Shown here in pieces: positions 22,855 through 31,556 of a stretch of DNA of 64,000 nt. The DNA is from an uncultured Acidobacteriota bacterium. GTDB lineage: Bacteria; Acidobacteriota; Thermoanaerobaculia; Thermoanaerobaculales; Sulfomarinibacteraceae. The stretch is taken from assembly GCA_963714745.1 (NCBI GenBank), contig CAVQPK010000002.1:2239531-2303530 (forward strand). The letters run 5' to 3'. The notes beneath the pieces are model-generated. The model ran no database searches. It was not told the origin of the DNA and saw only the letters and a program-made list of their open reading frames with translations. Numbering within the stretch: the stretch's first letter is position 1; every line of letters starts with the position of its first letter. Both the position numbers and the translations under genes were made by a program.

Positions 22855-22880
22855 CCGGGGGCGGGCGCCAGCCCGGTCAG
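22851..22880. terminator. Hairpin embedding both convergent stop codons (possible bidirectional terminator)
   Basis: CTGACCGGG (22851-22859) pairs with CCCGGTCAG (22872-22880) across a 12-nt loop. TGA of the ABC gene (22852-22854) and TCA, the TGA of the FAD gene (22877-22879), lie inside the stem arms. There is no U-tract. Confidence 0.35.
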
Positions 22881-24271
22881 AGCTGGCCGTCGGCGCCCCA
22901 GGCGTCGAGCCGGGCGAGGTAGGCCGGGTCTCGGTACCTTTCGAGCCCGAAGGCAGGCGCGGAGCCGGGCAGACGGCCGCCGGTGAGGTGGAGAGCAACC
23001 AGCTCGGCGGTGGCCTGCGAGACCATCAGGCCGAAGCCGGAAAGTGCGCCGTGCACAAACGCCCCTTCGACCGGCAGCGGGCAGGCGAGCGGCCGGTTCT
23101 CGCGGGTCTTGGTGTAGTACCCGCCGTCGACGAAGGGGCGCGGCGGCCGGTCGAAGTAGGCCGCGAGGCCCGGGACCATGGCCGCCATGCCACGCAGGCA
23201 GATCTCGCCGTAGCTCGGCGGCGTCTCGATGGGAAAGGTCTCGGACACCGGATCGGCGTGGTAGGGCCACAGGATCAGCATCCCGCGGCTGTCTCCCGAC
23301 CCCTCGGGCCGCAGGTGGACCCCGGCCGGCATCTCCCGGGTCAGGAACCGCGTGTCTTCGTCGGCGTCGAGCAGCTCTCGCTCCTCCTCGCTCCACGGCA
23401 GCCGCTGGGCGTCCTCCCAGATCAGCAGCGGCGCGTCGCGCGGGACCGTGCCGAGCGCGTCCTCCATCCACGCCTTGCAGTGCAGCTCCGAGAACACCGG
23501 CAGCGCCACCTCGAGCAGGCGGGCGGCGGCAGCCAGGCGCGGGCCGGCTGCGAGCACCAGCCGACCGGTGGGCACCGTGCGCTCGAGACCCCCGCGCTCC
23601 GCGACCCGAACGCCGGCGACCCTTCCGCCGGTTGTCTCGACCGCGACCATCCGTCCCTCGACCAGCCGGACTCCCGCCTCCCGAGCGCGCTCCAGCTGCA
23701 CCATGCCGAGCTGCTGGCCGTCGAGCCAGCCGCAGCGGCGGGTGTGCAGCACCGCCTCAATCCGTCGGGTGAGGAACGGGAACACGGTCCGGATCAGGGC
23801 GGGGTCGAGCAGCAGGTCGGCGCCGTCGGGCGCCTCCTGCCAGCCCTGCTCGCGGTGGGGCAGATAGTCGGGGTCGCTCGCCCGGCCGGTGTGGATTCTG
23901 AGGTCGCCGGCGCCCTGCAAGGTCGCGAGCTCGCCCTGGCGGCGATAGGCGTCGGCCCGCACCGGGTCGGCGGTCGCCCACAGGTAGCCTCGGCGGTTCA
24001 TCCGGAACCGGTTGTCGCACGAGTCCGCCAGCTCCTCGAGCAGGTCGATCGAGCGGTTCATCAGCCGCACCATGGCGTCGTCGGGCCCCGGCCACCAGTT
24101 CCGGTAGGCCTCGGTCGACTTGTCGGAGGTCAGGCTGAGCGGCGGCCCCTCGTCGATCAGAAGCACGTCGCGAACCCCGAAGCGGACCGCCAGGTGGTGG
24201 GCGACAGAAACACCGGCGATGCCGGCGCCGCAGATCACGATCTCGGCACTGGAGGATGGCATCCTCAGCAT
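22877..24271 (-). CDS. FAD-dependent oxidoreductase (DAO family)
   Basis: ATG 24271, in frame with stop 22877. 'EIVICGAGIAGVSVAHHLA' is a dinucleotide-binding motif. The N-terminal 245 aa of the listed 709-aa ORF do not look like protein. Confidence 0.85.
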   Translation of the reverse strand: MLRMPSSSAEIVICGAGIAGVSVAHHLAVRFGVRDVLLIDEGPPLSLTSDKSTEAYRNWWPGPDDAMVRLMNRSIDLLEELADSCDNRFRMNRRGYLWATADPVRADAYRRQGELATLQGAGDLRIHTGRASDPDYLPHREQGWQEAPDGADLLLDPALIRTVFPFLTRRIEAVLHTRRCGWLDGQQLGMVQLERAREAGVRLVEGRMVAVETTGGRVAGVRVAERGGLERTVPTGRLVLAAGPRLAAAARLLEVALPVFSELHCKAWMEDALGTVPRDAPLLIWEDAQRLPWSEEERELLDADEDTRFLTREMPAGVHLRPEGSGDSRGMLILWPYHADPVSETFPIETPPSYGEICLRGMAAMVPGLAAYFDRPPRPFVDGGYYTKTRENRPLACPLPVEGAFVHGALSGFGLMVSQATAELVALHLTGGRLPGSAPAFGLERYRDPAYLARLDAWGADGQL

Positions 24272-25254
24272 GATCGCACGGCGCTCAGCTCCGCGGCTGC
24301 ACCACCTCCCGCATGCGCGGGTCCTCGCGGACCGGCTCGAGCAGCCTCGAGTCGGGACGCATGCACCAGGGGCCCGGCCTCCCCGGAACGCCTGGTCGAG
24401 CGCGGCCTCGCGGTGACCACACGCCCGGAGGGTCCGCGCCCCGAGCAGCGTCAGCCCCCCGATCCGGCCCGTCCGGGTCTCGACCAGCGGTCCGTCGAGG
24501 GGGCGCCGGATTGCGGCGGCCTCCCGCAGCCCGGCTCGTGCGACCACCTCCGCGGCAGCGAAACGGCCGTGCTTCTGCTCGGCTGCACTCGACCTTGTCG
24601 CGCACGAATCGGGCATGGTGTGGTCTTCTCGACGGCCGGTTGGGACTGCTCGGGTGAAGAACTCATGTGCCATGAGGGCTGTGCGGGCGTCATCGGCTGC
24701 CAGACTGTATGGACCGACAACCCTCAGGTGACGGTTCCGAAGAGGCCGGGCAGGACTTCGGAGAGGACAACGGCGATGCCCGGCGATGCGTGGACGCGGA
24801 TGACGATGGAGGTGGCCTGTCGTTCCACGCACACGATACTCCGGGGGGGAGCGGTGATACGTGCTACTACAATGCGGCGAACCGGTTGCCGGTCGCCTTT
24901 CGTCTGCTGGCGGACGGTGGGTACAATCCCGTCTGCGTCCGTGAGAAGGAACCCGGCGTGCCGTTTTCTGGCTGTGATACGAGTGTCGTGGAACTGGGTC
25001 GCGCAACCGCGAGCGAGGTCTTCTTCAGAATCCTGACGGGCTACGCGACTTCGTCAAGTGATTGGGGTGACTTTGCGAACCTCGCCAAGCTCGCCGCTTT
25101 TTGATCTCCACTCCGAGTGCAGTGCGCCCTGCTGCCACGCGACGTCCGAGCAACAGTCGGCCATACAGTCGTTTACCGCCATCGGATACCCTCCAGGCTC
25201 GACGAGCACACTGCAGTGCAAGCCGCTGCAGTGTCTCTGATGAGGTAGGACTAC

Positions 25255-27885
25255 ATGCAGCGAAGCGTCCTCCGCGTGTCAAGATTTGTAGTGGCGGCCG
25301 TCCTCGGGGCGGCCGTCGCCCTTGCCGAGCCCCCTGATCGCGACTCGCTTGAGTACGACCTTTTCGCGACTCGGCGCACATGGTGGATTCCCAGCAACGG
25401 GCAGAGCTTCCAGGGGCTCTGGCGGTACGAGCCAGAAACGGGGGAGTGGGAACGGCTCCGACCGCTCTTCTTCAATCAGCAGACGGACCGTTTTACCCCG
25501 TACAGCCGTAATGGGTACGGGGCTTTCCTCGCAGGGACGGGAGACCGGCTCGTCTTTCAGGTCTGGCCCGCAACCCAGGAGTGGGAGCTCGGCACCTGGC
25601 GGCTGCTTCGTCGGTACGCCCCAATGCCTCGAGAAGCGAGCGGTTGGGTGCTCCACGGCCCAATCGTGTCTGCGGAGATTGCGGCCTCAGCTGGGATCGA
25701 AGCTGGAGCGTACGGTTTTCCGCTGTGCCTGCGCTACCACCTCACCAGCGGCCTCGAACCGGTCGGGCCCGTGAGTTGCGATCCCATCCGCATTCCGGGA
25801 TCAGCTGCTGATGCTGAAGAGACATCGACCTCGCTCCTCGTTATCCAGGGGAGCGGGCCAGCACGAGCACTCACGGATTCGTTCGACCTTGGCCAGGTCA
25901 CCTGGGAGACTGGGAACTCCGGGGTCGAATCACCGCCGGTATTGAGTCTCGACCCAGACAGGAGCGTCCTGTACCGGGGAACACCAAGCACGCTGCAGGA
26001 GTGGACGCTGAGCTGGCCACCAGTCCTGACCAGCGAGATCGACGTTCCCGTGTCGCTCGTCGCACATCCCTACACAGATGTCGACCTGCTGTTCTTTCAC
26101 CCACGCCGAGACCGTTTCTTCTGCGTTACCCGTTCCCCGGCCCTCTTCGGAATTCAGCCTGAAGAGTGGGAGGTGTTCTCCTTTCGACACGACGGTGCTG
26201 ACGTGACTTCGCACGTCCATGTCACAGACGAGGATCCGCTGGGAGTACCCGTCACCCTCGCAGCGGTTGGCGCGGCACCGACGGTGAACACACAGCTCAT
26301 CCCAGTTGTGAGTCGCACGACGGGGATCAACAACACGTTCTGGACGGCAGAGCTCTGGCTGTACAACCCATCCGCGGCCGAAATGGCAGTGACAATCCGG
26401 CGGATCGTCAGCCCTCAGTCGTCGACTGCCGTGACGGTACCGGCGTACGGTTCGCTCCGCATACCTGACGCACTCGCCTGGCTCGGCGGCGGCGAAGCCG
26501 GCGACGGGGTCAAGGCCGATGCGCTCGTGCTCACCTCGCCCTACCGGTGGGGGGCCAACCTCGTCGCCGCGGCCCGAGTCTCGACACCTGCGGAGGGAGG
26601 AGGCAGCTACGGCCAAGCAGTTCCCGCGGTCCCGAGCACGGTCGGGTACTCCAACCACCTTCCGTACTACCCCGAGGAGAGCGACGCCAACTACAACATC
26701 CACTGGGAGGAGCGGCGTCCAGCAACCCTCACGCTCGACCTGCGCGAGCCCGGCCGCTTCCGTCATAACCTCGGAATCGTGAACGACGAGGACGAGCCCG
26801 TTGAGATCACGCTCGAGTGGGCGTACAACCTGATGGCCGAGCAGGATTCCACCGACCTTCGGCCAGCGGCCGTGGTGCAGCGCGTCGCCGCCCCCGCGCA
26901 CAGCGTTCACATCGTCTCGCTCGAGGGCCTCTTCCCACCCGAGGTGCGCGACGCGTGGCCGCCTCGGGTTGCGGTCTACGCCGACCGGCAGGTGGCGCTG
27001 TGGCTGTCGATGGTCGACAACCTGACCGGTGACGCGACCTTCATTCCCTACACCAACCTGACCCTGCATACCGACCTCGACGAGGACTGGTATGCCGTCC
27101 CGGTCGTTGCTCACAGCCCGGGCAGGGAAGGTACGTTCTGGACCACTGCTCTCTACGGTACGGAAGGACGATTCCTGCATCGTTTCGAGTATGACAAGCC
27201 CGACGCTGCCTTCCTGCCGGCAGATCCGGTAGCCGCGTGTGGCGGTGCCGCAGCTGCCGACCGGATCGCCGCCGTCTTGCCAGGAGAGGTGGGCATGCCG
27301 ATGGACCGATGGCTGGAAACGCTGCAAGGCCTCGGCTACGAGCCCACTGAGGACTGGGCGAAGCGAGAATGGCGCACGGTCTTCCCCGACGTGGTCAGGC
27401 TCTTCCCCGCCTGCGCCGAGGAGGACTCCACGAGGGGTGCCCTCGAGGTGCGCGCCGGCTCGTGGACGGCGGGCTTCACCCGCACCTTCACGACCCGCGC
27501 TGACGGCGGCACGTACGGCAGCATGCTGCCCTTCTACCCCCCACACGGCTGGCCGGTGCAGCACTTCGCAGGGATCGAGGTCCGCGCGGGGTGGCGCGTG
27601 AACGTGGGCCTCTACAACGGCCAGCGTGACCGGGCGGTCGTCCACCGCCTCAGCCTCTATGCCGCGGACGGCACGCTCGCGGCCCAGAACGAGCTGACCC
27701 TCGACCCGGGAGCGAGCCTTCTCGAGCCCCTCGCGACCGCACTCGGGGTCCCCTCGCTTCCCGACGGGACGTACGGCTTGACGGTACTTCCCCTCGACGA
27801 CCCCGAGACCGGCGACCAGGGCACCTCCTGGGCCTACGTCTCGCTCGTCGACAACGTCACCGGCGACCCGACGAACTGGTGGTGA
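25255..27885 (+). CDS. Large secreted hypothetical protein (876 aa) with an internally duplicated uncharacterised module
   Basis: Full listed ORF, SD GAGGTAGG upstream, signal peptide 'RFVVAAVLGAAVALAEP'. There are two modules. Each opens with '(I/V)PVV(S/A)..G...TFWT(A/T).L' and closes with 'S(M/L)VDN(L/V)TGD(A/P)T'. GC content and codon usage are visibly lower than in the flanks. Confidence 0.8.
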   Translation: MQRSVLRVSRFVVAAVLGAAVALAEPPDRDSLEYDLFATRRTWWIPSNGQSFQGLWRYEPETGEWERLRPLFFNQQTDRFTPYSRNGYGAFLAGTGDRLVFQVWPATQEWELGTWRLLRRYAPMPREASGWVLHGPIVSAEIAASAGIEAGAYGFPLCLRYHLTSGLEPVGPVSCDPIRIPGSAADAEETSTSLLVIQGSGPARALTDSFDLGQVTWETGNSGVESPPVLSLDPDRSVLYRGTPSTLQEWTLSWPPVLTSEIDVPVSLVAHPYTDVDLLFFHPRRDRFFCVTRSPALFGIQPEEWEVFSFRHDGADVTSHVHVTDEDPLGVPVTLAAVGAAPTVNTQLIPVVSRTTGINNTFWTAELWLYNPSAAEMAVTIRRIVSPQSSTAVTVPAYGSLRIPDALAWLGGGEAGDGVKADALVLTSPYRWGANLVAAARVSTPAEGGGSYGQAVPAVPSTVGYSNHLPYYPEESDANYNIHWEERRPATLTLDLREPGRFRHNLGIVNDEDEPVEITLEWAYNLMAEQDSTDLRPAAVVQRVAAPAHSVHIVSLEGLFPPEVRDAWPPRVAVYADRQVALWLSMVDNLTGDATFIPYTNLTLHTDLDEDWYAVPVVAHSPGREGTFWTTALYGTEGRFLHRFEYDKPDAAFLPADPVAACGGAAAADRIAAVLPGEVGMPMDRWLETLQGLGYEPTEDWAKREWRTVFPDVVRLFPACAEEDSTRGALEVRAGSWTAGFTRTFTTRADGGTYGSMLPFYPPHGWPVQHFAGIEVRAGWRVNVGLYNGQRDRAVVHRLSLYAADGTLAAQNELTLDPGASLLEPLATALGVPSLPDGTYGLTVLPLDDPETGDQGTSWAYVSLVDNVTGDPTNWW

Positions 27886-27992: not shown

Positions 27993-28382
27993 TCAGGCTC
28001 GGCTTTCGGAACGCAGCATGCCGTAGACCAGCCCACCGAGGCGGTCGGCCGCGTCCCTTACCATGCTCGGTATCGCGACGCCGCGGGCTGCGAGCAGCGC
28101 GAGCGCCGTCTGGACTTCCTGCACCTCCGCGTAAGCCGCCTCGAGATGCTGGCGGCGGTTGCCCAACGTGCGCCCGCTCGCCTCGGAGAGCCTGAGCGCT
28201 GCGTTGTCAGCAGCTCTGACGAGATGGTCGCGGACGTGGGACAGCCCGCGCGGGGTGGCCAGCGCGGCGATGCTGCCGGCGAGTCCGACAGCAACCTCGA
28301 GCGCGACGAGCTTCCCCCGGCCCCGAGGGAGGGTGTGGTGGGCGGCTCGGGAAGGTCTGGACGAGGGAGTGTGCTGGCTCAT
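27993..28382 (-). CDS. Four-helix-bundle protein (TIGR02436 / 23S rRNA-intervening-sequence-protein-like)
   Basis: ATG 28382 within ORF 27993..29369, with GGGGAGAGG upstream. 'LVRAADNAALRLSEASGRTLGNRRQHLEAAYAEVQEVQTALALLAARG' fits the family pattern as I recall it. A truncated paralog lies at 49347-49493. Confidence 0.65.
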   Translation of the reverse strand: MSQHTPSSRPSRAAHHTLPRGRGKLVALEVAVGLAGSIAALATPRGLSHVRDHLVRAADNAALRLSEASGRTLGNRRQHLEAAYAEVQEVQTALALLAARGVAIPSMVRDAADRLGGLVYGMLRSESRA

Positions 28383-28400
28383 GCCTCTCCCCGAAGGCGG

Positions 28401-28472
28401 CCGGCGGCTGGCTGTCAAGGGTGGCCTTCGGCCATGAGCCCTGCGAGCCTGCCCTTGACAGCCAGCCGCCGG
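28401..28472. repeat. Perfect 21-bp inverted repeat with 30-nt spacer just upstream of the four-helix-bundle start
   Basis: CCGGCGGCTGGCTGTCAAGGG (28401-28421) pairs with CCCTTGACAGCCAGCCGCCGG (28452-28472). Imperfect homology extends to about 28345 and 28525, including a mirrored copy of the gene 5' end ('TGAGCCAGCACAC'). Confidence 0.85.
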
Positions 28473-28740
28473 TCGCCTACTCCGACCAGCTGAGCCAGCA
28501 CACGTCCCGGCCAGACCGTCGAGTCGCGCGCGACGATCTCGGTCCCGGGACGCGATCCCGACCCCGCTGCCCGACCTCGCTACCCGCTGCCCGTCCCCCG
28601 ATCCCGGACCCCGCGCCCCGCCTCCCGCCGCCCGACCCCGGACTCTCACGCGCCTCGATCCTCTGAGACTCCGTTCGCTCACCAGGGCCACGGCTCGCAG
28701 ACACGCGGCCCGTGCCGCGCTCTCCCCGCCCGGTCCCGTC

Positions 28741-31506
28741 CTACCCCGTGTTCTGCAGCCCCCGGGCGATGCCGCGCACGGTGGTGAAGAGGGCGCGCTC
28801 GAGGTCGCGGTCGCGCGCGGCCGCTCGCTCGCCAGCGGCGCAGCAGGTCGACCTGGAGCAGGCTGATCGGGTCGACGTAGGGGTTGCGCAGGCGGATCAC
28901 GCGGGCGAGCAGCGGTCTCGCGCTCGAGCAGCGTCCCGACGCCCTTGCAGCCCCAGCACCAGGTCGCAGTGCGGGCGTACTCGCTGTTCGACCGGAGGCC
29001 AGATCCGTCTCGCCGGTCTCCCCGGCGAGGTCGGCGTAGCGGCGGGCGATGTCGAGGTCGGCCTTGGCCAGCACCATCTCGACGTCGCCGAGCAGGTTGG
29101 CGAAGAACGGCCACTCGCGCGCCATCGCGGCGAGCAGCTCCTCGCCGTGCTCGTCGAACCGCCGCTCGAGCCCGGCGCCGACGCCGAACCAGCCCGGCAG
29201 CAGGTGGCGGCTCTGCGTCCAGGCGAAGACCCAGGGGATCGCGCGCAGGTTGGCGACGCCGCTCGCCGGAGCGCCGGGACGCCGGCCGCGAGCCGATCGG
29301 CATCCGCTCGATCACGTCGATCGGGGTCGCCGGCCGGAAGTAGGCGAGGAAGTCGGGGTCGTCGTGCACCAGCTCGCGGTACGCGTGCCGAGCGGCGCCG
29401 GCCGACCGTCGTCATCGCTGCCGCCAGGCCGGTCGGCGGCGGCGGCGAGCTCGCGGCCGGGCGGTCGCCTCCAGCACCGCGCCGGCCATCAGCTCCAGGG
29501 TGCGCTCGGCGATCCCGCGCAGGCCGTACTTGGCGTGGACGATCTCGCCCTGCTCGGTGACCCGCAGGCGCCCGGCGACTGCACCCGGAGGGCGCGGCCA
29601 GGATCGCCTCGCGGGGCTTCGAGCCGCCGCGGCCGACCGTCCCGCCGCGACCGTGGAAGAGGGTCAGGCCGATCGCCCGCGTCGGCGGCCACCGTCGACC
29701 AGGTCGCCTGGGCGCGGTAGAGCGCCCAGCGCGAGGCGGCGATGCCGGAGATCTTGGTCGAGTCGGAGTAGCCGAGCATCACGATCTGGCCGTCGCCGCG
29801 GCGTGCGAGGTGATCGCGGTAGGTCGGGCTCGGCGAGCATCGCCGCCAGCGTCGCTCGCGCCGCCTCGAGGTCGTCGACGGTCTCGAACAGCGGCGCGAC
29901 GTCGAGCGGCACGCGCCGCTCGGCGTCGACCAGTCCCGCGACCCGCGCCAGCAGCAGCACGGCGAGCACGTCGTCGGGCCCCTGCGCCATCGAGATGATG
30001 TACGGCCCGATCGCCTCGGGCCCGAAGCGGCGCGCGGGCCTCGCCCACGGCCCGGAACACGTCCAGGACGCCGGCGCGTCGGCGGCGACAGCCCGCGCGA
30101 GCGGTGCGGCAGGCTGCTCGAGAGCGGCGCGCAGCCGCGCGCGCACGCGCCGCGGCCGGCGCGTCGGCGAAGCCGGGCTCGGCGAGCAGCTCGGCCAGCG
30201 CCCGGCGGTGGACGACGGCGTCCTGGCGCACGTCGAGGGTCGCGAGGTGGAAGCCGAAGGTGGCGACCCGGCGCGGCAGCCGCCGCACGCAGTGCGAGCC
30301 CGGCGTGCTCGCCCCGGTGGCGGTCGCAGGCTGGCGGCGATCACGCTCGAGGTCGTCGCGGAGCTCGTCGGGGCCCGGTAGCGCTCGCGGCGCGTCGCCG
30401 AGGGTCGCGCCGAGCCGCGCCCAGATCAGCCACAGCAGCACCCGGTAGGGCATGTCGCGGTAGCGTCGGCGGAATCGTCGGCCGCAGTCGTCGGGCATCA
30501 GCTGCGCGGTAGCGCGCGAGCGCGCTCGAGCGACCTCGGTCGACACGCCGACCCGCGACGCGCGACTGGCTGAGGTGCTCGAAGAGCTCGCGGACCTCGC
30601 GCGGTAGCGCTCGAGGACCAGCTCGCGCTGGCGCTCGAGGGTGGCGAGGATGGTGTCGGCGCCGACGTTCGGGTTGCCGTCCATGTCGCCGCCGACCCAG
30701 GAGCCGAAGCGCACCAGGGCTGCCGGCGAGGTCCGACGCCGGCGCCCGGGCCGTAGACCGCCTCGAGGGCGCGCTCGAGCGCCTCGTAGAACGGCGGCAC
30801 GACCCGGTAGATCACGTCGGTGAGGAAGAACAGCACGTGCTCGACCTCGTCGGCCACCGTCGGCCGCTCGGGACGGCTGCTCGTCGGTCTGCCAGATCGA
30901 GGGGGATCTCCGTCGTGACCCGCTGCTCGATCGGGCCGCGGCCTCCTGCGGGGTCGGCTGCGGCGTGCTCGATGCGGTCGACCAGCAGGCGCGCGATGCG
31001 CTGCTCCTTGCGCAGGATGCGTGCGCCGGATCGCCTCGGTCGGGTGGGCGGTGAAGACCGGCGTGACCCTCAGACCGGACAGGACCTCCTGCGCTCGCTC
31101 CAGCGGCACCCCGGAACGAACCAGCGCCGCCGTCGCCGCCGACAGGCTGCCGGCCTGGGGCGACTCCGGAACCGCGAGGGCGGAGCGGCGCCGCCGGATC
31201 CGGTGCACCCTGCTCGGCCAGGTTGACGAGCGAGAAGTACGACGAGAAAGCCCGCGCCAGCTCGCCCGCGGCGTTGGGGTCGAGGTCCTCGAGGGCAGCC
31301 GCCAGGCGCCGTTCCCCGTCGGGCTCACCGGCGCGGCGAGCGATCGCCGATCGACGAGCGGCCTCGACGCGCTCGTAGAGCGCCTCGCCTCCCTGGGTGA
31401 CGATCACCCGGCCAAGCAATGCCCCCAGCCAGCCCACGTCGCGGCGCAGCGGATCGTGCTCGGAGGGAAGGTCGGCGGTGCGGGTCCCGGTGTCCGTGGT
31501 GCTCAT
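28741..31506 (-). pseudogene. ppc: Phosphoenolpyruvate carboxylase, interrupted by many +/-1 frameshifts
   Basis: PEPC motifs are spread over all three minus frames. N-terminus, 'FGSWVGGDMDGNPNV' and '[12 protein letters not shown]' are in ORF 29779..31536. 'TPVFTAHPTEA' and 'PTVADEVEHVLFF' are in 30498..31328. '[13 protein letters not shown]...[12 protein letters not shown]' is in 29664..30344. 'MLGYSDSTK' is in 29489..29782. 'WPFFANLLGDVEMVLAKAD' and 'LRNPYVDPISLLQ' are in 28679..29125. The manual C-terminus is 'FTTVRGIARGLQNTG*', with stop at 28741-28743. Confidence 0.85.
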
Positions 31507-31556
31507 GGCGACCATCGTAGCGGGGACAACCCGCAAGCCACCCGCCGCCGCTTTGT

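Follow-up and report, generated by a model that had tools for sequence, protein, structure and literature searches.

The window analysed here comprises 64,000 nucleotides of contig CAVQPK010000002.1 from an uncultured Acidobacteriota bacterium. At positions 25255-27885 of its forward strand lies a gene, the target of this study, that encodes a protein of 876 residues. The protein displays the features of a Sec signal peptide, followed by a variable head and a long C-terminal tail built from two homologous modules, each of which is itself a duplication. The beta-sandwiches of this tail very probably make up a family of their own, new and centred on Acidobacteriota, within the ASRT/TM1070/DUF5719 ("ASRAH") superfamily, and the target family is shown to have been encoded ancestrally directly downstream of an M4 protease. 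An earlier note on this DNA, made from the sequence alone, had described the two modules; the duplication within each module and the linkage to the protease were missed there.

The gene, its export signal and its parts

The open reading frame (ORF) at 25255-27885 (forward strand) starts with ATG and contains 876 codons plus stop, exactly the coordinates and length given in the earlier note, and the coding sequence is complete. A Shine-Dalgarno-like stretch, GAGGTAGG (25242-25249, forward strand), is read from the sequence 5' of the start codon, with a GAGG motif 9 nt before the ATG. The G+C content of the target region (0.66) is slightly lower than that of the window (~72%), and the values for the three codon positions of the gene (0.68/0.52/0.78) are coding-like. 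Fifteen close full-length homologs were found, one identical protein encoded on a 2.5-Mb contig and 14 others, none of which carries a Pfam annotation or an informative name; the architecture is common to ~60 representative clusters. The ratio of nonsynonymous to synonymous substitution rates (dN/dS) is 0.12-0.26 in the head, module 1 and module 2 regions, and the target is under purifying selection in all three. The gene is real and conserved, as the homologs, the family alignment and dN/dS attest. Promoter and terminator scans around it gave nothing beyond shuffled expectation. The NCBIfam scan of the target returned no family, and the Pfam scan returned sub-threshold Kelch matches only, with no match to DUF5719 or to ASRT (none at E<=10 for the latter).

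At the N-terminus, MQRSVLRVSRFVVAAVLGAAVALA followed by EPP, the sequence shows the n-, h- and AxA-regions typical of Sec signal peptides; the peptide, read from these features, would span residues 1-24 (25255-25326, forward strand), with a predicted cleavage between ALA and EP and without a lipobox cysteine. The AlphaFold2 (AF2) model places a low-confidence helix at residues 2-20, and signal peptides are present at the start of all module-family relatives examined. These features are in line with the proposal that the protein is secreted.

The head (residues 25-340; 25327-26274, forward strand) is all-beta, with strands throughout in the AF2 model, and is the most variable part of the protein. 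Foldseek points to WD40/RACK1-type propellers with a probability of up to 0.99, at a template modelling (TM) score TMt of at most 0.38, a root mean square deviation (rmsd) above 9 and moderate model confidence, and the head may be called propeller-like. Kelch_4 and Kelch_1 score 13.8 and 12.7 bits at residues 47-71, their cut-offs being 21.6 and 20.1. The N-terminal ~340 residues otherwise give no significant sequence match, and had been said to match nothing known. Comparison with the 77%-identical ortholog at locus L050 separates the head (dN 0.39, dS 2.4) from the modules (dN 0.04-0.09, dS 0.3-0.4), and G+C at third codon positions is 0.70 in the head against 0.83-0.84 in the modules. Because dN, dS and third-position G+C all differ between the two parts, the comparison suggests a mosaic gene, in which the head may have been replaced or recombined while the tail was conserved.

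The tail comprises four domains over ~530 residues. Module 1 (M1) covers residues 347-602 (26293-27060) and module 2 (M2) residues 613-876 (27091-27882), both on the forward strand, as are all tail features given below. Between the single sequences the kinship is weak (BLASTP E 0.003-0.012). When alignments of 10 family members each, A2 for M1 and A3 for M2, are compared as profiles with hhalign, the modules prove homologous with 98.6% probability and an E-value of 1.2e-15, which substantiates the two copies that had been reported. The motifs quoted for them, IPVVSRTTGINNTFWTAELWLYNPS, LSMVDNLTGDATFIPY, VPVVAHSPGREGTFWTTALYG, VSLVDNVTGDPTNWW, GGGSYGQAVPAVP and DGGTYGSMLPFYP, were all found in the target, at conserved positions of the family alignment.

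A general module profile, A5, was built from 35 diverse units of distant proteins. It matches M1 with 100% probability (E 8e-44, 221 columns) and M2 with 99.9% (E 8e-32), over the full length in both cases. As a hidden Markov model (HMM) run against the window translated in all six frames, A5 matched the target alone, with a whole-protein E-value of 1.1e-62 and domains at residues 347-602 for M1 (2.8e-36) and 615-635 plus 711-875 for M2 (7.7e-20). When A5 is split in two, its N-half and C-half are also homologous (95.1%, E 3.3e-8), the strand GT.WRTDL.l.Np of the former aligning with ..FRTNvGlvN of the latter. Each module is a dyad of beta-sandwich units of ~110-130 residues, and since the halves are homologous and M1 and M2 are homologous as well, the target ends in a tetrad. 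The dyads are delineated by hhalign and AF2, together with Foldseek in M1, whose two sandwiches are of ASRAH type, and with alignment A3 in M2.

Both halves of the general module contain a signature strand of nine residues, [WF]RT[DN]hxhxN. In M1 the strand W363-TAELWLY-N371 of the N-half (26341-26367) fits this signature, and the strand F502-RHNLGIV-N510 of the C-half (26758-26784) contains invariant R503, N505, G507 and N510. In the C-half of M2 the strand is W780-RVNVGLY-N788 (27592-27618), where R781 is invariant and N783, G785 and N788 are conserved. The signature is partly lost elsewhere in M2, where the N-half (FWTTALYGT) lacks the Asn and the Gln of the GTYGQ motif is replaced by Ser in GTYGS. 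M1 is closed by MVDNLTGDATFIPY (27010-27051), in which M586, D588, N589, T591, G592, D593 and P598 are invariant, the family consensus being aYaSVVDNrsGDPvfi. The last residues of the target form the motif LVDNVTGDPTNWW (27844-27882), of which the family keeps the ending DPTN[WLF]W. The first unit of M2 further contains a partly helical insertion of ~65 residues (~655-722), with AF2 helices at residues 683-716 and a pair of cysteines, C662 and C720, that are nearly invariant in A3. Like the signal peptides, this Cys pair speaks for export.

Fold of the tail units and the ASRAH superfamily

The ASRAH superfamily was defined around ASRT and TM1070 by De Souza, Iyer and Aravind in 2009 (PMC2739507). 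Its domains are eight-stranded sandwiches in which a conserved Asn ends the signature strand, the second of the eight, whose residues border a ligand cleft; in ASRT-like members this strand reads SHEshChhN, with a nearly invariant Asn (PMC2739507). The domains come as dyads or tetrads, sugar binding has been predicted for them computationally, and the extracellular versions are predicted to bind cell-surface glycans (PMC2739507). One extracellular family is fused to cell-wall amidases, and in Actinobacteria an ASRAH lipoprotein is associated with a zincin-like peptidase and with a glycosyltransferase (PMC2739507). Our literature search on ASRAH found only this paper from 2009, and that on DUF5719 found nothing.

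AF2 models the full-length target as all-beta throughout, with a predicted local distance difference test score (pLDDT) of 76.8 and a predicted TM score of 0.81, and M1 alone with a pLDDT of 78.9; the models derive from shallow alignments of 10-15 sequences. Foldseek aligns the M1 model with TM1070 of Thermotoga (1nc7) with a probability of 1.00, TMt 0.67-0.70 and an rmsd of ~4.5 Å over ~120 columns, and TM1070 is the best and only convincing fold match of this model in the PDB. Structure prediction followed by Foldseek, a check proposed in the earlier note, thus identified the fold of M1 and gave for the head only the WD40-like resemblance described above.

Several other candidates were rejected in the course of these searches. 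Vicilin/bicupin and Fab chains, which have the lowest Foldseek E-values for M1, are two-domain look-alikes (TM 0.1-0.2, rmsd 17-22), and the matches of the full-length model to a propeller, alpha-2-macroglobulin and an Ig-array are below TM 0.4 and uninformative for the tail. A dUTPase sequence match in the PDB (E 0.07-0.12) reflects a short motif coincidence, FRTNvG versus YRGNVG. A thioester protease trap of the alpha-2-macroglobulin type was dismissed, as the CxEQ motif is lacking and the fold match is poor, and an outer-membrane beta-barrel, an idea that came from the C-terminal Trp, was dismissed since the model shows sandwiches and no barrel. The viral library BFVD yielded nothing significant.

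Sequence profiles extend the link from the module family to the superfamily. DUF5719 (PF18986) matches 8 of the 35 single units (best E 2.6e-9) and 4 of 46 full relatives at E<=1, and it exceeds its 26.2-bit cut-off in P0121 (36.5 bits) and in P0185 (41.9 bits over 218 residues, the span of a dyad). On the same stretches ASRT (PF07100) reaches a best E-value of 2.1e-4 in one of the 35 units and 0.035-0.16 in others, all below its 25-bit cut-off. A hmmsearch of the PDB with the C-half profile finds ASRT 2ii7 at E 0.28; in this alignment the segment "lvN + next strands" falls on ILNAGDEDAHVEITIYY... and the family Asn on the Asn of ASRT "ILN". The Asn that ends the signature is present in the target as N371 (M1 N-half), N510 (M1 C-half) and N788 (M2 C-half) and missing in the M2 N-half. 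The conserved Trp or Phe (W363, F502, W629 and W780) heads the signature strand itself and, as far as the strands can be equated by sequence, not a preceding strand. We infer that the near-invariant signature Arg may occupy the position of the ligand-contacting His25 of TM1070.

Because the ASRT profile match is not significant, membership in ASRAH rests on the fold and on transitive links, and because the target matches neither Pfam model, it is filed as a new ASRAH family and not under DUF5719 or ASRT proper. The modules had been called uncharacterised. They indeed have no Pfam or NCBIfam model of their own, but they are not orphans, having remote ASRAH kin with solved structures and a published prediction. 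The modules thus map only weakly to a domain already characterised, the link being remote and the function of the superfamily itself predicted.

The conservation pattern could also be read as that of an enzyme. The polar and charged residues of the module are unusually conserved for so divergent a family (G, R, N, Q and D, for example, vary hardly or not at all among 46 proteins), and the elements R, T, D/N, S-R-T-Y, G-T-Y-G-Q and D-N-x-x-G-D might form the catalytic or metal site in a hydrolase or lyase of a new kind. However, TM1070 and ASRT, which share the fold, are binding domains without enzymatic function; four-fold repetition and attachment to genuine enzymes are typical of accessory domains; and M2 has lost the Asn of its N-half and the Gln of GTYGQ. 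We therefore consider a catalytic function of the module very unlikely.

Carriers of the module, the linked protease and the role of the tail

A search of sequence representatives with a module HMM, likewise proposed in the earlier note, recovered a large family. Among 1.84 billion representatives the exhaustive HMMER search with the M1 profile detected 1724 proteins at E<=1e-3, of which 472 remain at E<=1e-10 and 62 at E<=1e-30, hits being counted as representative clusters, and so the signature is found in many unannotated proteins, as the earlier note had it. The top ~60 matches share the length and architecture of the target, and the remainder are other module-bearing proteins. Word-indexed searches with the M1 profile returned only fragments of the same family, and the distant members were reached by the exhaustive search. 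Most of the database matches carry no taxonomy; the named module-bearing members belong to Thermoanaerobaculia, Holophagae or Acidobacteriota. Of the Acidobacteria- and Myxobacteria-like hosts that had been suggested, the former are thus borne out, and no myxobacterium is among the named matches. The consensus of 118 module units from distant proteins (median 222 residues) reads vPvvArt.Ga.GT.WRtDLtlfNPg...SRTyT....gGTyGQ.vPav...FRTNvGlVN...aYaSVVDNrsGDPvfi.

Distant proteins almost always carry the module as a tandem, and in 63 of 76 of them the last unit lies no more than 11 residues from the C-terminus. This extreme position, the highly conserved SVVDNxsGDPxF within a few residues of the protein end and the great diversity of cargo heads would all suit a sorting or secretion signal that is recognised by an export or attachment machinery, in analogy to the C-terminal domains of the type IX secretion system (T9SS), and is possibly removed or covalently attached after transport. 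Such a signal would nevertheless be far bigger, at ~450 residues and four domains, than known sorting domains. Small relatives of ~271 residues consist of a signal peptide and one module and carry no cargo, and the module is internal or near the N-terminus in P0142, P0155 and P0157. NCBIfam models hit the relatives only as stray sub-threshold matches outside the module, with neither Por_Secre_tail nor any other sorting domain, and no conserved machinery gene appears in the neighbourhoods examined. On balance a sorting function is improbable.

The single-module genes of ~271 residues form part of a conserved cluster that includes a bactofilin gene in L052 (5019-8416), L053 and L054 (5872-8350). 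A small unannotated gene (171 or 153 residues) lies directly downstream in L052 and L054, unannotated genes of 215 and 205 residues lie between bactofilin and module gene in L052 and L053, and a Ser/Thr kinase gene is located farther downstream in L052 and L054. The bactofilin association may bear on the ligand of the module.

The heads joined to the tail are varied. Pfam domains in 46 module-bearing proteins are PKD (34), fn3 (19), Peptidase_M10 (18), LVIVD (4), BACON (3), RCC1 (2) and reprolysin-type (2), with one each of GH88, BNR, Peptidase_S8, cupredoxin and CARDB. A further search revealed cupredoxin fusions (PF13473, called plastocyanin by one source) and additional fused heads that, from their accessions, we take to be CHRD (PF07452), cohesin (PF00963), laminin-G (PF13385) and trypsin (PF13365).

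Such a repertoire raises the possibility that the tail is a substrate-targeting module, which would steer secreted hydrolases, and the propeller head of the target, to external polymeric food and not to the surface of the producing cell; plant, fungal or microbial cell-wall material and glycoproteins are candidate polymers. Many of the heads are degradative (M10, M12, S8, GH88, BNR), the beta-sandwich fold comes from a superfamily with predicted sugar binding, and paralogs with variable heads are expanded in single genomes, with at least nine loci in one metagenome-assembled genome (MAG). Moreover, C-terminal PPC or PKD substrate-binding extensions are common on M4 and other secreted proteases. 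The tail is, however, also joined to non-degradative heads (cupredoxin/plastocyanin, RCC1 and, presumably, CHRD), true glycoside hydrolases are rare among the heads, and the stand-alone single modules in bactofilin-linked clusters fit retention at the cell better. Because of the cupredoxin and RCC1 heads and the cargo-less single modules, retention is favoured over substrate targeting, which we regard as possible but doubtful.

The examination of co-occurring genes, also suggested at the outset, bears on the partner of the target. A scan of 185,579 species-representative genomes yielded 46 target-family loci, nearly all in Thermoanaerobaculia, Holophagae or Acidobacteriota MAGs; the outliers are one Chloroflexia-labelled and one Gemmatimonadaceae-labelled bin. 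Clustering of the neighbouring ORFs across loci revealed one recurrent neighbour, besides two opposite-strand clusters inside the target gene itself. This neighbour, of 600-740 residues, is located immediately upstream on the same strand, often with a 4-nt gap between the reading frames. It carries HEWGHG...EGFAD and the Pfam domains Peptidase_M4, Peptidase_M4_C and the FTP propeptide, and is thus thermolysin-like. By tblastn the M4 gene or a remnant of it is found upstream in ~24 of the 43 copies that have at least 1.5 kb of upstream sequence. A conserved operon was sought in the window and its closest relatives, and only the M4 gene recurred.

In the window, the ancestral upstream partner of the target survives as a truncated remnant (24569-25195, forward strand), which was detected by tblastn with the intact neighbours. 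It matches residues 427-631 of a 643-residue protease in three pieces and two frames, the largest piece being the ORF at 24709-25104 (131 residues), and its stop, TGATGA, precedes the ATG of the target by 12 nt. In place of HEWGH it reads RARIGH, so that no HEXXH motif is left. The first ~425 codons of the protease are missing, since a divergent gene for a flavin adenine dinucleotide (FAD)-dependent oxidoreductase starts near 24274. Remnants of the M4 C-terminus alone also occur in L001, L005 (second copy), L033 and L041. At L050, the locus of the closest relative, the protease is present and frame-broken, and at L051 it is absent.

The tight same-strand gene order with small gaps in about half of the loci, and the duplication of M4-plus-target pairs as units in L005 and L020, would also suit a protein dedicated to the adjacent protease as its inhibitor, chaperone or activator, by analogy with the operon-encoded inhibitors of secreted metalloproteases. 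Against such a regulator, the target is intact and under purifying selection where the protease is decayed or absent (the window, L050, L051), and conservation in the target is concentrated in a generic tail that unrelated proteins also carry, the family-specific head being the least conserved part. There is also no likeness to known inhibitor folds, alpha-2-macroglobulin giving Foldseek TM scores of 0.07-0.09. A regulatory role for the target is therefore unlikely.

Since the M4 proteases lack the tail, which the M10 proteins of the same bacteria carry in cis, the M4/target pair resembles the fused M10-PKD-tail proteins divided over two genes, and by a comparison of the Rosetta-stone type it would be their split counterpart.

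Two further observations concern the copy number of the family. At least nine target-family loci occur in one MAG, binchicken_co66_87 (L013, L014, L017, L019, L020, L023, L032, L040 and L046). Tandem copies occur as well, L005, L020, L035 and L039 being the loci listed for the expansion; where the M4-plus-target unit is repeated, in L005 and L020, the second M4 gene of L005 is a C-terminal remnant.

We infer from these lines of evidence, tentatively and at slightly less than even confidence, that a glycan-binding tail holds the propeller-like head in the cell envelope or matrix and did so originally as partner of the M4 protease. The Sec signal peptide would export a three-part protein with a variable propeller-like head and a tetrad tail. 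The tail is predicted to be a ligand-binding cassette, whose ligand is most likely a glycan bound in clefts lined by the signature strands, and this cassette would keep exported proteins on polysaccharide of the cell envelope or matrix. The head-plus-tail protein may have served the free M4 protease as a tethering or targeting partner; in this genome the protease would have decayed, and the predicted binder would persist alone under purifying selection. A wider proposal is doubtful: that the tandem ASRAH-dyad tail is an unrecognised surface-retention cassette typical of the Acidobacteriota (Thermoanaerobaculia, Holophagae), which would tether metalloproteases, subtilases, glycosidases and cupredoxins to envelope or matrix polysaccharide. 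In that case the M4 gene and its propeller-tail partner would make up a protease system of two components, tethered to the surface and multiplied into many paralogous cassettes.

Several points weigh against retention by glycan binding and the protease partnership. The heads are mostly proteases and not glycosidases, so a proteinaceous or other substrate is equally compatible, and a signal peptide alone is no proof of passage across the outer membrane. The ASRAH link is remote, the target having no DUF5719 or ASRT match, ASRT staying below threshold among the relatives and the PDB sequence match lying at E 0.28. Sugar binding by ASRAH domains is in turn a prediction (PMC2739507), and binding of ASRT to DNA has been reported as well (PMC8660804). 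Finally, nearly half of the family loci are without the protease. In close relatives (P0003 at L051, P0009 at L002) the neighbouring genes are unrelated, so any protease partnership is not obligatory.

The remaining neighbours of the target include, upstream, the DAO-type FAD-dependent oxidoreductase (22877-24274, reverse strand; PF01266, E 2e-28), for which the listed ORF of 709 residues overextends the real gene at its 5' end. Downstream, phosphoenolpyruvate carboxylase (ppc, ~28679-31536, reverse strand) is broken into four or more overlapping ORFs that differ in frame, with PEPcase profile segments 233-481, 483-553, 705-739 and 787-894; either the gene is a pseudogene or the breaks stem from indel errors of the assembly. 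Because ppc is also split over frames, some apparent frameshifts in this assembly may be sequencing errors, although such errors do not explain why the protease remnant lacks its 5' part. Within the ORF at 27993-29369, the C-terminal part (~28070-28400, reverse strand) shows a weak, sub-threshold likeness to the 23S rRNA-intervening-sequence/four-helix-bundle family (PF05635, E 0.005) and is probably a small separate gene just 3' of the target on the opposite strand. PF05635 members also lie near module-bearing genes in L054 and L055. Neither the oxidoreductase nor the ppc flank is kept across the target family.

Acidobacteriota are abundant in soils and sediments and poorly studied. Through this analysis ~1700 unannotated protein clusters are recognised as carriers of one ASRT/TM1070-related tandem tail and gain a testable annotation, that of a predicted exported ligand-binding cassette, probably for glycans. 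The ASRAH superfamily is widened past the three families described in 2009, and a recurrent protease-plus-binder gene pair is brought to light. Nothing is overturned by these results, which are a solid gain in annotation and not a new principle.

Comparison with known systems

The tail units resemble ASRAH domains (ASRT, 2II7; TM1070, 1NC7; PF07100, formerly DUF1362) in forming a sandwich of ~110-120 residues with about eight strands and in having a signature strand with a conserved Asn at its end, followed by a tight turn. In both, the domains are arranged as dyads or tetrads, and extracytoplasmic forms are fused to cell-envelope enzymes or linked with them. There are also differences. The sequence similarity is marginal, with a best E-value of 2e-4 among relatives of the target family and no Pfam match for the target. 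The His and Cys of the ASRT-like cleft are replaced in the target's family by Arg and by Gly or a variable residue, and the conserved Trp of the family starts the signature strand and would not lie in strand 1. The motifs SRTYT, GTYGQ and SVVDNxsGDP are specific to the target's module family. In addition, the family is centred on Acidobacteriota and occupies the C-terminus of large exoproteins, and none of this kind had been described in 2009.

DUF5719 (PF18986) is the sole Pfam family that some module relatives reach above the curated threshold, and it would correspond to the actinobacterial family of secreted ASRAH-dyad lipoproteins described by De Souza et al. The two share a peptidase context of zincin type and, beside one module relative, a glycosyltransferase: in L055 (4499-8347) the 448-residue double-module protein P0198 is encoded directly downstream of a 752-residue GT4/GT2 fusion glycosyltransferase, which echoes the adjacency reported for the actinobacterial ASRAH lipoproteins. 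In contrast, the target and its close family match DUF5719 nowhere, belong to another phylum and carry tandem dyads at the C-terminus of multidomain proteins. The actinobacterial lipoprotein has a lipobox Cys, whereas the signal peptide of the target (ALA before EPP) is without one. Its neighbourhood of WhiB, glycosyltransferase and inactive zincin is also not found beside the target, which is flanked by the DAO-type FAD oxidoreductase, the M4 remnant, the four-helix-bundle ORF and ppc.

A likeness to the PPC, PKD and SLH domains and to the C-terminal domain of T9SS cargo lies in the placement at the C-terminus of exported enzymes, the beta-sandwich fold, the repetition and the spacers of PKD or fn3 type. 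The module shows, however, no sequence or profile match to PPC, PKD, SLH or Por_Secre_tail, and the tail unit of the target is much larger. Compared with these systems, what was already known is the superfamily with its solved structures (1NC7, 2II7) and published functional prediction; new here are the C-terminal tandem dyads, the family-specific motifs, the Acidobacteriota-centred spread and the metalloprotease link.

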